Shown here: in pieces, positions 1 to 4,835 of the stretch
Layout: every line of letters begins with the position of its first letter
Position numbering within the stretch: the first letter of the stretch is position 1
Made by a program: the position numbers and the translations under genes
DNA from: a virus
Taxonomy: Duplodnaviria; Heunggongvirae; Uroviricota; Caudoviricetes
Reading direction: 5' to 3' (one strand)
Virus record (IMG/VR): IMGVR_UViG_2693429508_000011
Length of the DNA stretch: 4,835 bases
Notes under the pieces: model-generated
Database searches by the model: none
The model's input: only the letters and a program-made list of their open reading frames with translations
Told to the model about the DNA's origin: nothing

Positions 1-30
1 ACACTAAATCAGTAAGTTGGCAGCATCACC
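1..30 (-). mobile_element. IS1 terminal fragment: left inverted-repeat end of an IS1 copy that extends leftwards out of the window
   Basis: Positions 1-30 (acactaaatcagtaagttggcagcatcacc) are the exact reverse complement of the recalled IS1 left end GGTGATGCTGCCAACTTACTGATTTAGTGT. The element is therefore in minus orientation and its boundary is at position 30. Confidence 0.85.
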
Positions 31-137
31 GAAGTGGTAAAGAAGATAATAAAGAATAATATTTAGGGTTATAGGTCTTAGCCCATTTTAAATGGAAGGC
101 AGACATGCAGCCATGCATACTTCGCATGGCAACATAA

Positions 138-566
138 TTATTTAGACAAACTATCTAATTTTTGCGTCGCTTTTTGTGTTAGGTCGCTGTAACTGATAAA
201 CCCTACGTTAGCACCTACAATTAACACTAAGAACACTAAGCTGCATATGGATAGAGTGGCAGATTTATGCTTATGGAAAACAAAATATGCTACTATTGCA
301 CTTAATATGAAGGAAATGAATAGAAATATAGATGTTGATGTTTTTAGATATTTTTCAGGAAATAATGGGTGAGCAATAATGTATACAAGATTAAGTAGTA
401 TATAAATTGCTACCGGAATGAAAATCATGCTCCAGTGTGTATCTTTTTTGGGAGGGATTGGCTGCAAATAATCAGACACCGTTTTTCCATCAGTTTCAAG
501 AAGAATTACTAGATCTCTTACTTCACCACTGACTTGAGTGCCATCCTTAGTAGTAATGTTAATCAT
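138..566 (-). CDS. Hypothetical small membrane protein, 142 aa: about 45-aa N-terminal soluble domain followed by three predicted transmembrane helices
   Basis: ORF 138..623 trimmed to the internal ATG at 564-566, which is preceded by a strong Shine-Dalgarno GGAGGG with a 5-nt spacer (minus strand reads tttGGAGGGaaaaaATG). Three hydrophobic stretches (IFIPVAIYILLNLVYIIAHPLF, IFLFISFILSAIVAYFVF, LSICSLVFLVLIVGANVGFI). Its ATG overlaps the upstream gene's TGA as ATGA. AT-rich, unlike the neighbouring phage genes. No family recognised. Confidence 0.6.
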   Translation of the reverse strand: MINITTKDGTQVSGEVRDLVILLETDGKTVSDYLQPIPPKKDTHWSMIFIPVAIYILLNLVYIIAHPLFPEKYLKTSTSIFLFISFILSAIVAYFVFHKHKSATLSICSLVFLVLIVGANVGFISYSDLTQKATQKLDSLSK

Positions 567-940
567 TTTTTCCCTCCAAATACGATGCCCTCTACGTCTT
601 TGGAAGCTTTTTGTGATGACCACTCCTCTGAATCAGGTGATTTAATTAAAAATATTGTATCTCCATCAAAAATCGTATTTGTTCCGTAAAAATTCACATT
701 TGATAGATCACCACCAAAAACCCTCTGCCCACTCGAGGTAATTGCCTCACCTAATTTAGTAAAATTACCAGCAATAGATGATTTTCTTTTTCCACTTCTA
801 TTCAAAGTGGCTTTAATTACACCACCACCATCCTTAGAGTTAAATAATTGAATGTCCACTCCAGCAGTTGGTTGTATATATTTTGAAAGCTCTTTCTTGA
901 ACTTGTTAATATATTTATCTTTGTTTTCTTTGTTGGTCAT
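563..940 (-). CDS. Hypothetical soluble protein, 125 aa, Gly/Ser/Lys-rich; first gene of a two-gene operon
   Basis: Uninterrupted 125-codon ORF in AT-rich DNA with a single Met start at 940. Its stop (TGA, 563-565) overlaps the start of the downstream membrane-protein gene. Upstream Shine-Dalgarno is weak (GGAT). No recognisable family from sequence alone. Confidence 0.5.
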   Translation of the reverse strand: MTNKENKDKYINKFKKELSKYIQPTAGVDIQLFNSKDGGGVIKATLNRSGKRKSSIAGNFTKLGEAITSSGQRVFGGDLSNVNFYGTNTIFDGDTIFLIKSPDSEEWSSQKASKDVEGIVFGGKK

Positions 941-1027
941 TGGTTAGATCCATAGTTCTGGCTGTGATTAGGTGAAAGTATACAAGGTTTTTAAAGCGAA
1001 GATCACTGTTTTGGCTTCAAGATAGTT

Positions 1028-1056
1028 TTGATTTATCGTAATCAATCCGCCATAAT
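1028..1056 (+). promoter_or_regulatory. Candidate sigma70 promoter upstream of the nin operon (-35 TTGATT, 17-bp spacer, -10 CATAAT)
   Basis: TTGATT at 1028-1033, 17-bp spacer, CATAAT at 1051-1056, about 150 bp upstream of the ybcN start and oriented towards it. Hexamer match only, no experimental support. Confidence 0.3.
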
Positions 1057-1204
1057 CCTCTCATCGGAGCCTGAACAACTCCGGTGACTTCTGCGCATTT
1101 AAGGGGACTTAAATGCGACCACAATCTGAACTCATCACCTTGTCACAGATGCAGAAATGCACCTGCGATTTTCTGCATTCTGCGGTTTCCGTTAGGGAGG
1201 CCGT

Positions 1205-1660
1205 ATGACTCTGCCAGTAGACGGCATCAAACTCCATCGCGGTAACTTCGCGGCCATCGGCCAGCAGATTCAGCCATTGCTGGATGCCGGGCAATGCTTA
1301 CGCCTGCAGGTTAAGCCGTGGCGCGAGAAGCGCAGCCTGTCGCAGAACGCGCTCAGCCACATGTGGTACACGGAGATCAGCGAATATCTCATCGCCCGCG
1401 GCAAGACCTTCGCTACGCCTGAGTGGGTCAAAGACGCGATGAAGCACACCTATCTCGGCTACGAAAGCAAAGACCGTGTAGATGTCGTGTCCGGCGAGGT
1501 CACCACCGTCCAATCCCTCCGCCATACGTCAGAGCTGGAAACCGGCGAGATGTACATCTTCCTGTGCAAAGTCGAAGCCTGGGCGATGAATATCGGCTGC
1601 CACCTGACAATTCCGCAGAGCTGTGAATACCAGCAGCTGCGCGATAAGCAGGAGGCGTAA
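1205..1660 (+). CDS. ybcN: NinB/YbcN-family phage protein (nin region recombination / DNA-binding protein), 151 aa
   Basis: 151-aa ORF with Shine-Dalgarno GGGAGG 5 nt upstream of the ATG. Length and position (first gene of a ninE-ybcO-rusA cluster) match DLP12 ybcN as recalled. Sequence identity is recalled, not searched. Confidence 0.8.
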   Translation: MTLPVDGIKLHRGNFAAIGQQIQPLLDAGQCLRLQVKPWREKRSLSQNALSHMWYTEISEYLIARGKTFATPEWVKDAMKHTYLGYESKDRVDVVSGEVTTVQSLRHTSELETGEMYIFLCKVEAWAMNIGCHLTIPQSCEYQQLRDKQEA

Positions 1661-1830
1661 TGGCTACACCGCTTATTCGTGTCATGAACGGGCACATCTA
1701 CAGAGTATCAAATCGTCGTAAGCGTAAGCCTGAGCTGAAGCCATCCGAAATACCAACACTGCTCGGATATACCGCTAGCCTGGTTGATAAAAAATGGTTG
1801 CGACTGGCAGCAAGGAGGAATCATGGCTGA
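1660..1830 (+). CDS. ninE: NinE-family small phage protein, 56 aa
   Basis: Hand-translated ORF missing from the supplied track (below its size cutoff): [56 protein letters not shown]. Its start overlaps the ybcN stop (TAATG). The basic RKRKP motif and 56-aa length fit NinE. Confidence 0.75.
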   Translation: MATPLIRVMNGHIYRVSNRRKRKPELKPSEIPTLLGYTASLVDKKWLRLAARRNHG

Positions 1831-2113
1831 TTTGAGAAAAGCAGCGCGTGGTCGGGAATGCCAGGTAAGAATCCCTGGCGTATGTAATGGCAATCCTGAA
1901 ACGTCAGTACTGGCACATATCCGGCTGGCTGGATTGTGCGGTACCGGTATCAAACCGCCAGACCTGATTGCCACCATTGCATGTTCTGCCTGTCACGACG
2001 AAATCGACCGCCGCACATATTTTGTCGATGCTGAGTATGCAAAAGAATGCGCGCTGGAAGGTATGGCGAGAACGCAGGTTATCTGGCTGAAAGAGGGGGT
2101 TATTAAGGCGTGA
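1823..2113 (+). CDS. ybcO: YbcO-family (DUF1364-like) putative phage nuclease, 96 aa, Cys-rich
   Basis: ORF 1784..2113 trimmed to the ATG at 1823, which is preceded by AGGAGG (1812-1817). Begins [14 protein letters not shown]; 96 aa matches DLP12 YbcO. Overlaps the ninE 3' end by 8 nt. Confidence 0.8.
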
Positions 2114-2472
2114 ATACCTACAGCATCACATTACCCTGGCCTCCGAGCAATAACCGCTATTACCGCCATAATCGCGGGCGCACACACATCAGCGCAGAAG
2201 GGCAGGCATACCGCGATAACGTCACCCGAATCATTAAAAACGCAATGCTGGATATCGGCCTGGCTATGCCAGTGAAAATCCGTATTGAGTGCCACATGCC
2301 GGATCGCCGTCGCCGTGACCTGGATAATCTGCAAAAAGCCGCTTTTGACGCACTCACCAAAGCAGGTTTCTGGCTGGATGATGCTCAGGTCGTTGATTAC
2401 CGCGTTGTGAAGATGCCTGTTACCAAAGGTGGGAGGCTGGAACTGACCATCACCGAAATGGGGAATGAATGA
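2110..2472 (+). CDS. rusA: RusA Holliday-junction resolvase (endodeoxyribonuclease RusA), 120 aa
   Basis: 120-aa ORF beginning [24 protein letters not shown], recognised as RusA. GTG start at 2110 overlaps the ybcO stop (GTGA). Confidence 0.9.
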
Positions 2473-2609
2473 TGTTTGAGTTTTATATGGCAGAACTTCT
2501 TCGCCACCGCTGGGGGCATCTGCGCTTATATCGTTTCCCCGGTTCTGTTTTGACCGATTACCGAATACTGAAGAATTACGCCAAAACCCTGACAGGAGCA
2601 GGAGTATGA
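2469..2609 (+). CDS. ylcG: YlcG-family small phage protein, 46 aa
   Basis: Hand-translated ORF: [46 protein letters not shown]. Its ATG overlaps the rusA stop; size and position match DLP12 ylcG. Confidence 0.65.
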
Positions 2610-2694
2610 AGTCAGAGATAACAATCAACTAATACTGTTTTGTTGATTTTTGCTTGTAATTGGCGTTCTGGTCTGATTTTTGTGGAGTAAGTTG

Positions 2695-3078
2695 ATGCGT
2701 GATATTCAGATGGTTCTTGAGCGTTGGGGAGCGTGGGCGGCTAATAATCATGAAGATGTGACCTGGTCGTCCATTGCCGCCGGTTTTAAGGGATTAATTA
2801 CTTCAAAAGTAAAATCTCGCCCGCAATGTTGTGACGATGACGCGATGATTATTTGCGGGTGCATGGCCCGTCTGAAAAAGAACAACAGCGATTTGCACGA
2901 TTTATTAGTAGATTATTATGTAGTCGGTATGACATTCATGTCACTGGCAGGTAAGCATTGCTGCTCTGATGGTTATATCGGGAAAAGGTTACAGAAGGCT
3001 GAGGGCATAATTGAAGGGATGTTAATGGCATTAGATATCCGGTTAGAGATGGATATCGTTGTTAATAACTCTAATTAA
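2695..3078 (+). CDS. quuD: Phage late-gene antiterminator Q (phage 82 / DLP12 QuuD type), 127 aa
   Basis: ORF 2680..3078 trimmed to the ATG at 2695, preceded by GGAG (2684-2687) with a 7-nt spacer. The Cys-rich 127-aa product ([24 protein letters not shown]...) and its position after rusA-ylcG match the phage-82-type Q of DLP12. Confidence 0.8.
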
Positions 3079-3102
3079 TATGCCAATTGTTTACTAAAAA
3101 TT

Positions 3103-3128
3103 ATTAAAAATGGGGCGTTGCAACGCCC
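3103..3128 (-). terminator. Candidate rho-independent terminator for the minus-strand porin transcript
   Basis: Perfect 18-bp palindrome GGGGCGTTGCAACGCCCC (3111-3128), followed on the minus strand by a T-rich tract (ATTTTTAATAATTTTTAG), about 140 bp downstream of the porin stop. Confidence 0.4.
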
Positions 3129-3216
3129 CCAAAAATAAAGGGTAATATATAACAGAAGGTTTATATAGTTAGAAGCAAGGTTGTGCTCCTAAAGGAAGTG
3201 GCTTGAGGGAGCCACT

Positions 3217-3257
3217 TATATGTTGGGGAGGCAAAGCCTCCCGCAACATATCTTTTA
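3217..3257 (+). terminator. Candidate tR'-like intrinsic terminator downstream of Q
   Basis: Long imperfect hairpin (atatgttggggaggc / aaa / gcctcccgcaacatat, one bulged G) followed by CTTTTAG on the plus strand. Position is analogous to lambda tR' after the late promoter. A second 8-bp hairpin lies just upstream (3195-3216). Confidence 0.35.
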
Positions 3258-3266
3258 GTAATCAAA

Positions 3267-4349
3267 TTAGAACTGGTAAACCATACCTACAGCAACGATA
3301 TCATCGGTAGCAACGCCAGATGCTTTCGTGAAATCGCTCTTATCAATCAGGTTGATTTTGTAATCAACAAAAGTGGACATATTTTTGTTGAAGTAATAGG
3401 TTGCACCTACATCAATATATTCAACCAGGTCCTGATCACCCCACGCACCCAAGTCTTTTCCTTTAGATTGCAGGTAAGCAACGGACGGACGCAGACCGAA
3501 GTCGAACTGATATTGTGCAACTACTTCGAAGTTTTGTGCTTTGTTGGCAATATGGTTATTACCAAAAACAGTCATGTTCTGGGTTTCAGAATAGGTGGTA
3601 GCCAGATAGATGTTGTTCGCATCATATTTCAGACCAGCTGCCCATACTTCAGCATTTTGACCAGATGCATTCAGGCTGTTGTTACCGTAGATAACCTGAT
3701 TATTAGTGCGGTCAGATTTAGCATAGGTTGCACCTACACCGAATCCTTCATACTCATAAGTAGTGGAGAAACCGAAACCATCACCATTAGCTTCAGTTAC
3801 GTCAGTGCGGTCATTTTTACCCTGATACTGAGCAGCAAAGTTCAGACCATCAACCAGACCAAAGAAGTCGTTGTTACGATAAGTTGCAACACCAGTGGTG
3901 CGACCAGTCATGAACACATCTGTTTGAGTCCAAGTGTCACCACCGAATTCTGGCAGGACGTCAGTCCACGCACCGATGTCGTATGCTACACCGTAGTTAC
4001 GGCCGTAATCGATGGAGCCGTAGTCACCGAATTTCAGGCCAGCGAAGGCAAGACGGGTTTTATCTTTGGAGGAACCTTGAGATTCAGCGCGGTTGCCTTT
4101 GAATTCATATTCCCACTGACCGAAACCAGTCAGTTGATCGTTGATTTGGGTTTCACCTTTGAAGCCAAGACGGGCATAAGTAGTATCACCATCATCTGCA
4201 TCATTAGAGGAGAAGTAGTGCTTAGCATTAACTTTCCCGTACAGATCCAGCTTGTTACTGTCTTTATTATAAATTTCAGCTGCCTGAGCAGACATCGCCA
4301 TCAGTACTGATGCAGCTACAGCAGAAATTGCCACTGTTAATTTTTTCAT
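3267..4349 (-). CDS. nmpC: Outer-membrane general porin, OmpC/OmpF/PhoE family (prophage converting porin, NmpC/Lc-like), 360-aa precursor
   Basis: ORF 3267..4409 trimmed to the ATG at 4347-4349 ([23 protein letters not shown] signal peptide, AAGGG Shine-Dalgarno upstream). Mature N-terminus [17 protein letters not shown]...LGFKGETQ...[12 protein letters not shown] closely resembles OmpC. C-terminus ...VGMVYQF ends in the Phe typical of beta-barrel porins. Location after Q on the opposite strand matches DLP12 nmpC. Confidence 0.9.
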
Positions 4350-4456
4350 CGTGAGCCCTTTTTTTGAACTATTATTAAAAAATGATGTCACTGCGCGATA
4401 AATATTCATCTAATCAATGTGATTATTTCAAGATGTAAGTTTTGGTTTCTCGTTTG

Positions 4457-4782
4457 NNNNNNNNNNNNNNNNNNNNNNNNNNNNNNNNNNNNNNNNNNNN
4501 NNNNNNNNNNNNNNNNNNNNNNNNNNNNNNNNNNNNNNNNNNNNNNNNNNNNNNNNNNNNNNNNNNNNNNNNNNNNNNNNNNNNNNNNNNNNNNNNNNNN
4601 NNNNNNNNNNNNNNNNNNNNNNNNNNNNNNNNNNNNNNNNNNNNNNNNNNNNNNNNNNNNNNNNNNNNNNNNNNNNNNNNNNNNNNNNNNNNNNNNNNNN
4701 NNNNNNNNNNNNNNNNNNNNNNNNNNNNNNNNNNNNNNNNNNNNNNNNNNNNNNNNNNNNNNNNNNNNNNNNNNNNNNNNNN
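4457..4782. other. Run of 326 N (assembly gap or masked sequence); content unknown
   Basis: Continuous n characters. The two ORFs in the track spanning it (4419..4796 and 4423..4818) are artefacts of translating N. Confidence 0.95.
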
Positions 4783-4804
4783 GTTTACGTACGTAAAAAA
4801 TTGG

Positions 4805-4835
4805 GGTAATGACTCCAACTTATTGATAGTGTTTT
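4805..4835 (-). mobile_element. IS1 terminal fragment: right inverted-repeat end of an IS1 copy that extends rightwards out of the window
   Basis: Positions 4805-4835 (ggtaatgactccaacttattgatagtgtttt) are the exact reverse complement of the recalled IS1 right end AAAACACTATCAATAAGTTGGAGTCATTACC. Same minus orientation as the IS1 end at 1-30. Confidence 0.85.

Follow-up and report, generated by a model that had tools for sequence, protein, structure and literature searches.

The window analysed here, a stretch of 4,835 nt from the IMG/VR virus record IMGVR_UViG_2693429508_000011 (Caudoviricetes), carries part of a lambdoid prophage and is framed on both sides by an end of the insertion sequence (IS) IS1. 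A first-pass annotation, made from the sequence alone, had put forward that the two IS1 copies can mobilise the DNA between them as a composite transposon of the Tn9 type, or delete and excise it by recombination, or, alternatively, that IS1 insertions simply truncated the prophage. The following analysis concerns the arrangement of the two IS1 copies, the DNA between and around them, and the way in which this arrangement probably arose.

Positions 1-30 (minus strand) are the exact reverse complement of IS1 nt 1-30, i.e., the left inverted repeat (IRL) read from IS1 nt 30 to 1, and represent the inner end of the left copy, termed IS1b in the following. Positions 4805-4835 (minus strand) are the exact reverse complement of the last 31 nt of IS1 (IS1 nt 768 to 738), which comprise the right inverted repeat (IRR) and form the inner end of the right copy, IS1c. 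As reference we used the 768-bp copy IS1A, read from locus L002 (6776-7543) of Escherichia coli CV839-06, where it is flanked by the 9-bp duplication TTCTATTCA; the identities were 30 of 30 and 31 of 31 nt, respectively. Each terminus occurred a single time in the window without any mismatch, and none of 200 shuffled versions of the window matched either of them. The window starts with ACACTAAATCAGTAAGTTGGCAGCATCACC and finishes with GGTAATGACTCCAACTTATTGATAGTGTTTT, and the terminal inverted repeats of the IS1 family (GGTGATGCTGCCAACTTACTGAT... and ...AAGTTGGAGTCATTACC) are thus found at both of its ends, in agreement with the earlier reading that it opens with the last 30 bp and closes with the first 31 bp of IS1 copies in minus orientation. 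The shared minus orientation of the ends makes the two copies direct repeats. The completeness of the copies is not visible within the window and was read from related long assemblies.

Between the two termini, the open reading frames and family searches confirmed the partial lambdoid prophage (nin region, Q and porin) plus AT-rich cassette that had been assigned before. The DNA next to the left terminus (31-59, plus strand) stems from the lambdoid replication gene P, of which it comprises the last 29 nt with the stop codon, and is colinear with the end of the P coding sequence in the uninterrupted locus L001 (6002-6030). The remainder of P is absent, and the intact sequence GGGATGGTGC|GAAGTGGTA is broken at this position. 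Two AT-rich genes follow on the minus strand (138-940). On the plus strand, these are succeeded by ybcN (NinB/Orf-like; 1205-1660; Pfam NinB, PHROG 72, NCBIfam PRK09741), ninE (1660-1830; NCBIfam NinE family and L001 annotation), ybcO (DUF1364/HNH-like nuclease; 1823-2113; PHROG 131 and L001 annotation), the gene for the Holliday-junction resolvase RusA (2110-2472; NCBIfam PRK09786, 278.7 bits), ylcG (2469-2609; NCBIfam YlcG_phage_expr) and quuD, encoding a Q-type late antiterminator (2695-3078; Pfam Phage_antitermQ, E = 3.5e-53). An intact prophage porin gene of the OmpC family, nmpC/ompD-like, lies in convergent orientation (3267-4349, minus strand; NCBIfam OmpC subfamily, 518 bits). The family assignments gene by gene, together with essD following the porin in relatives, identify the segment as a module of the DLP12 type. 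No RNA family was found in the window or in the related IMG/VR provirus L013 by an Rfam search at gathering thresholds.

In 46 of 5,426 complete E. coli genomes, window positions 30-4456 are colinear with an uninterrupted lambdoid prophage, with a best identity of 99.6%. The order in these prophages is gam-kil-...-cI-cro-ydaT-O-P-[two hypothetical genes]-ybcN-ninE-ybcO-rusA-ylcG-quuD-porin-essD-rrrD-rzpD-bor-...-terminase, and the intact prophages that bear the AT-rich cassette are integrated at icd. Those of E. coli ETEC1747, CV839-06 and NDM1 share 99.0-99.6% identity with the window over 30-4456, cassette included, and are the best model of the ancestral state; they differ from the locus studied here in being complete (int, xis, exo, bet, gam, cI, cro, O, P and late genes) and in having no IS1 at either of the two sites.

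The porin protein is identical to an entry listed in 17,488 assembly blocks. With respect to the closest E. coli relative, ETEC1747, 16 of the 18 differences of the window fall into a stretch of about 315 nt of the porin gene (3927-4242), and this clustering beside a very widespread protein allele suggests that the gene may be a mosaic allele or a product of gene conversion among porin paralogues.

Probable assembly breaks and linear placement of the segment

Upstream of the porin gene, the window contains a run of 326 N (4457-4782), a scaffold gap or mask that corresponds to 261 nt in every relative (L013rc 5862-6122 and L020rc 13895-14155; rc denotes the reverse-complemented record). The hidden stretch is an AT-rich spacer with about 27% G+C in the relatives. 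As the N run is overlong, the true distance between the two IS1 copies amounts to 4,709 bp rather than 4,774 bp, and the run itself is a gap of estimated size or a mask that did not preserve length. A window that stops some 30 nt into IS1 on either side and contains such a run would be explained by the failure of short-read assemblers to cross a multi-copy repeat of 768 bp; the stubs and the N run would both fit a scaffolded short-read de Bruijn assembly with a k near 31 and estimated gap sizes. In 6,298 of the 12,488 assembly blocks listing an identical copy of the 125-amino-acid protein of the AT-rich operon, the longest contig that encodes it measures no more than 2-5 kb; such a pattern would result from breaks at the two IS1 copies in thousands of short-read assemblies.

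Both junctions between IS1 and prophage DNA were present in five other records: CP049179.1 (L004/L017), the IMG/VR provirus L013, CP104423.1 (L015), CP029794.1 (L020) and L024. A scan of IMG/VR for the exact left-junction pattern returned one provirus, L013, and further contigs with the junctions were found by look-ups of the window's porin and the 125-amino-acid protein. The exact 35-nt left-junction pattern had no hits in GTDB representative genomes and none in JGI metagenomes. None of the 5,426 complete E. coli genomes had IS1 at either junction, the best junction-spanning hits all stopping at the IS1 boundary, and in all other fetched loci holding these sites the sites were intact. CP029794.1 (GCA_002073875.2) is 100% identical to the window over 1-4456 and 4783-4835 and was published as Shigella sonnei 4303, sequenced with Ion Torrent reads, assembled by SPAdes and scaffolded on strain 53G. 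Judged by this identity, the window would be S. sonnei chromosome or is indistinguishable from it.

A window that ends in a repeat and includes an N run of incorrect length might also derive from a single IS1, either as a circle of 5.5 kb (an IS1 translocatable unit or excision product) or by a mis-join, and a short-read assembly graph cannot separate a segment between direct repeats from a circle carrying one copy. However, the segment has a linear position in the complete chromosomes CP049179.1 and CP104423.1 as well as in further long contigs, with different outer flanks at the two IS1 copies, cscK at the one and essD at the other. The two IS1 copies occupy distinct loci in these chromosomes, which for this lineage excludes the case, raised by the first-pass annotation itself, that both ends belong to one IS1 joined by an artefact; we regard an origin from one IS1 as highly improbable. 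The locus nevertheless calls for caution, as a short contig both of whose ends lie about 30 nt within copies of the same IS mimics a composite transposon. Such contigs arise in any short-read assembly in which two copies of a multi-copy IS sit a few kilobases apart, and it is the target-site duplications read from long assemblies that decide whether a transposon is present.

Target sites and flanks of the two IS1 copies

To describe the flanks, coordinates are given for L017 after reverse complementation (L017rc), i.e., in the orientation of the window. From left to right, this record carries the 5' part of cscK (1939-2229, plus strand), a first IS1 of 768 bp, IS1a (2230-2997, plus strand), a segment of 3.57 kb (2998-6566) with genes for products of 200 and 114 amino acids, torI, cscB and the 3' end of cscK, then IS1b (6567-9469, minus strand), the window's unique DNA (9470-14177) and IS1c (14178-14945, minus strand; also L013rc 6145-6912). 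From 14946 onward, the sequence proceeds as AAAATTGGTTATGCTG..., followed by a terminator-like hairpin, essD, lysozyme, Rz and late genes. In the relatives, both copies beyond the window's ends proved to be complete in IS1 sequence: IS1c spans the full 768 bp and is 99.5% identical to IS1A, and IS1b comprises all 768 bp, split by a nested element. The domains Zn-ribbon InsA, HTH_Tnp_IS1 and DDE_Tnp_IS1 (Pfam) were recorded on the 232-amino-acid IS1 product in L015. IS1b and IS1c differ from each other by 1 nt in 768.

The element within IS1b (L017rc 7108-9238) is a complete IS21 of 2,131 bp with 99.9% identity, inserted within insA and flanked by a 4-bp duplication of IS1 nt 228-231. In L004, L013, L015, L017 and L024, IS1b accordingly consists of nt 1-231, then IS21, then nt 228-768, which in L017rc reads as IS1 nt 768-228 and 231-1 around the element. 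IS21 is present in all five junction-bearing records. The notion that S. sonnei 4303 lacks it was dropped; in the scaffold of this strain, the terminal 124 nt of IS21 adjoin IS1 nt 231 and are followed by a gap of 100 N.

IS1c is bounded by an 8-bp direct duplication, AAAATTGG, the left copy of which lies in the window at 4797-4804 (plus strand) and the right copy at L017rc 14946-14953. The intact site, ...GTAAAAAATTGGTTATGCTG... in L001, has become ...GTAAAAAATTGG[IS1]AAAATTGGTTATG... in the interrupted prophage. The insertion point is the spacer between porin and essD, at a distance of 390 nt upstream from the start of the porin gene and 182 nt upstream from essD. Past IS1c, the prophage resumes in colinear order with essD, lysozyme, Rz, terminase and portal, among others. 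The late region extends over at least 20 kb beyond IS1c in L004 and L150, the latter ending in tail genes. As IS1c has an 8-bp duplication of its own, it is a simple insertion, in place, into the porin-essD spacer.

In contrast to IS1c, IS1b is flanked by CTGCAAGCG on its outer and GAAGTGGTA on its inner side and lacks a duplication, as expected at a rearrangement joint. On the outer side it adjoins the 3' end of cscK and then cscB of the sucrose csc locus. The missing partner of its outer flank was found at IS1a: the 9 nt left of IS1a, CGCTTGCAG, are the reverse complement of the 9 nt left of IS1b. In the E. coli csc locus L025, the 5' arm of cscK ends at 16874 and the 3' arm at 16882, in opposite orientations, and the shared stretch 16874-16882 is the same 9-mer. 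A 9-bp cscK duplication split in this way between IS1a and IS1b shows that recombination of inverted IS1 copies flipped the 3.57-kb segment. The events on this side were insertion of IS1 into cscK, then an IS1 by IS1 inversion of the segment involving IS1a and, later, landing of IS21 in insA of IS1b. One hit, H68, which had appeared to show IS1 at the same cscK site, was rejected as it is a different insertion near cscB and the apparent match resulted from joined BLAST pieces. The csc operon is wrecked over L017rc 1939-6566, cscK being split by IS1, its 5' part further broken by an IS3-family element and the block of cscK 3' end, cscB and torI inverted.

These data bear directly on the Tn9-like composite transposon that had been proposed, in which the direct IS1 pair would have moved the 4.7 kb as one unit into the present site, or would still do so. 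The architecture itself fits, as two direct IS1 copies with 1 nt difference lie 4,709 bp apart and the outer ends are intact (the IRR of IS1b at L017rc 6567 and the IRL of IS1c at 14945). However, the pair as a unit is flanked by CTGCAAGCG on one side and AAAATTGG on the other and thus lacks a common bracketing duplication, a duplication brackets IS1c by itself, the passenger is continued colinearly by prophage DNA on the far side of IS1c, and insA of the left copy is broken by IS21. In addition, the IS1-segment-IS1 unit occurred in no second context among the 5,426 E. coli genomes, 72,556 plasmids and 50,697 phage records, and none of these plasmid and phage records held even 80% or more of the segment. 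With a duplication of the expected 8-9 bp size at IS1c, but none at IS1b and none around the pair, we consider it very doubtful that the segment was transposed as a composite element, and the first-pass proposal is not upheld in this respect. Equally remote is the prospect that the 8.4-kb unit of IS1::IS21, 4.7 kb and IS1, its outer ends being intact, still functions in S. sonnei as a Tn9-like element or as a translocatable unit; if it were mobile, excision of a circle or transfer of the intact porin together with the AT-rich operon would be conceivable, with transposase supplied in trans by other IS1 copies. Independent of transposition, the direct and nearly identical copies would plausibly serve as a substrate for RecA-dependent deletion of the 4.7 kb; neither a deleted nor a circular form was encountered, although no search aimed at one was made.

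If the 3.57-kb inversion is undone, IS1b joins position 12000/12001 of L025 to the 3' end of P. This position belongs to the left arm of a lambdoid remnant adjacent to csc, 62 nt beyond a TraR/DksA gene; the remnant shares the 71-amino-acid protein WP_000188870.1 with the intact relatives. Before the inversion, the left joint may therefore have been formed by an IS1-promoted adjacent deletion or by recombination between IS1 copies; such an event would have removed roughly the interval from TraR to P, and with it the genes for recombination, immunity and replication, leaving of P the 29 nt at the joint. A different origin has to be weighed here, namely IS1-mediated recombination between different prophages or distant loci by a large inversion or translocation, with the half from int to P surviving elsewhere. 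The intact cassette-bearing prophages reside at icd, the left flank in S. sonnei belongs to a remnant next to csc and argW, and Shigella genomes are rich in IS-mediated rearrangements (PMC7373316), all of which would be in line with such a junction. However, the reciprocal junction (P-GAAGTGG...-IS1) had no hits in IMG/VR, which is a weak test, and the csc-adjacent remnant has both the 71-amino-acid protein and the TraR/DksA-family gene in common with the intact relatives. Since these two are shared, the locus is more economically explained by one mosaic prophage that underwent an internal deletion, and we regard a junction of two prophages as a possible but less likely origin. Whichever event formed the left joint, the prophage would be a defective remnant no longer able to replicate.

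Taken together, the segment is very probably the middle 4.7 kb of a degraded, DLP12-like lambdoid prophage in the S. sonnei chromosome, located in place between two IS1 copies that arrived or recombined independently of each other. The second of the two initial proposals, truncation of the prophage by IS1 insertions, is thus supported and has to be extended by a rearrangement or deletion on the left, the 3.57-kb inversion and the nested IS21. Several points weigh against this view. The flanks in the window's own source are deduced from near-identical records, and a published organism name is available for one junction-bearing record alone, that of S. sonnei 4303. The early prophage region may have been deleted or else displaced by a large inversion, and the intact relatives are found at icd and not next to csc. 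Finally, IS1 duplications of 8 bp, as seen at IS1c, are rarer than those of 9 bp, though documented. Walking along the 34.9-kb IMG/VR provirus did not reach the far end and the attachment site of the S. sonnei remnant; among the patterns used, one in Nu1/terminase hit more than 120 unrelated proviruses, and one at an IS2 junction returned the same locus and L150.

The AT-rich operon and the lysis-gene side of IS1c

The two genes on the minus strand at 138-940 have a G+C content of about 33% and share a 4-nt overlap of start and stop, indicating an operon. The first gene (563-940) encodes a soluble protein of 125 amino acids (PHROG 18061, unknown function), for which searches of Pfam, PADLOC, NCBIfam and PDB gave no hit. 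The second (138-566) encodes a predicted membrane protein of 142 amino acids (PHROG 16940, unknown function; annotated in L001 as the hypothetical protein WP_000608370.1); its C-terminal region is hydrophobic and, on inspection of the translation by eye, seems to contain several membrane-spanning segments. All of its Pfam hits were below threshold, no PADLOC or NCBIfam family was matched, and the lone PDB match was insignificant (E 0.71).

In the intact prophages of the 46 E. coli genomes, the cassette resides between P and ybcN with no IS1 nearby. It is therefore native cargo of this prophage family and did not arrive with IS1. With respect to K-12 DLP12, the first-pass annotation had stated that the genes normally upstream of ybcN are missing and are replaced by the cassette and IS1; the former holds true, as emrE-ybcK-ybcL-ybcM-ylcH occupy this position in K-12, while the link between the replacement and IS1 does not. 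The interval between P and ybcN is a typical slot for morons or defence genes, and the operon could encode an uncharacterised exclusion or abortive-infection module.

A deletion of 1 nt at window position 541 (GCCATCC to GCATCC) shifts the frame at codon 9 of the 142-amino-acid gene in the four S. sonnei-type records L013, L015, L017 and L024; the gene is intact in the window, in S. sonnei 4303 and in all E. coli relatives checked. The deletion is a sublineage-specific pseudogenisation and may be of use as a marker. In E. coli CV839-06, whose prophage is 99.6% identical, an independent IS1A with its 9-bp duplication lies within the 125-amino-acid gene (L002 6767-7552), which shows the AT-rich region to be a recurrent target of IS1.

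On the other side of the segment, a terminator-like hairpin (AAACCCGC...GCGGGTTT, then a T run; L001 10748-10769) starts 37 nt past the site matching window position 4804 and thus lies some 125 nt upstream from essD. This is the position expected for a tR'-like terminator, and IS1c is inserted just upstream of it. A simple sigma-70 scan revealed no promoter-like site in the porin-essD spacer. From its position and the terminator-like hairpin only, it may be conjectured that IS1c separates the lysis cassette from pR' and the Q side and uncouples it from Q-dependent transcription.

Relation to known elements and to IS expansion in Shigella

The locus resembles Tn9 in having a direct, nearly identical pair of IS1 around a few kilobases of passenger DNA. 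It is unlike Tn9 in that no duplication brackets the pair, the right IS1 has a duplication of its own, the left IS1 is broken by IS21, the passenger is a prophage in place that continues past IS1, and no second location is known. Another counterpart is DLP12 of E. coli K-12, which has the same gene order, ybcN-ninE-ybcO-rusA-ylcG-quuD-nmpC-essD, shows a nucleotide identity of about 92% to the locus from ybcN to quuD and in the porin gene, and is likewise a remnant ridden by IS elements, with IS3 in renD and IS5 in nmpC. In contrast to DLP12, the slot upstream of ybcN is occupied by the AT-rich operon, the IS types and sites are others, the porin gene is intact, and the neighbourhood is csc instead of argU. 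The same order of module genes, at 90-95% identity, occurs in functional phages, PhiR68_2 and Perceval among them.

Shigella reference chromosomes contain 229-348 IS insertions, IS1 being the dominant element and largest contributor (PMC7373316), and the IS expansion, which has reached hundreds of copies per chromosome, in this group has led to gene loss both by insertion and by recombination between IS copies (Hawkey et al., 2020, PMC7373316). The locus described here is one instance of that process and does not differ from it materially. It thus represents ordinary IS-driven genome decay, a known kind of event, and not a mobile transposon of the Tn9 type. IS1 expansion, prophage decay and IS-mediated inversions and deletions are already documented for Shigella, and the IS copies in question are contained in public S. 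sonnei genomes. Within this framework, the locus provides a clear worked example of an inversion recognised by a split target duplication and of IS nesting, with IS21 inside IS1.

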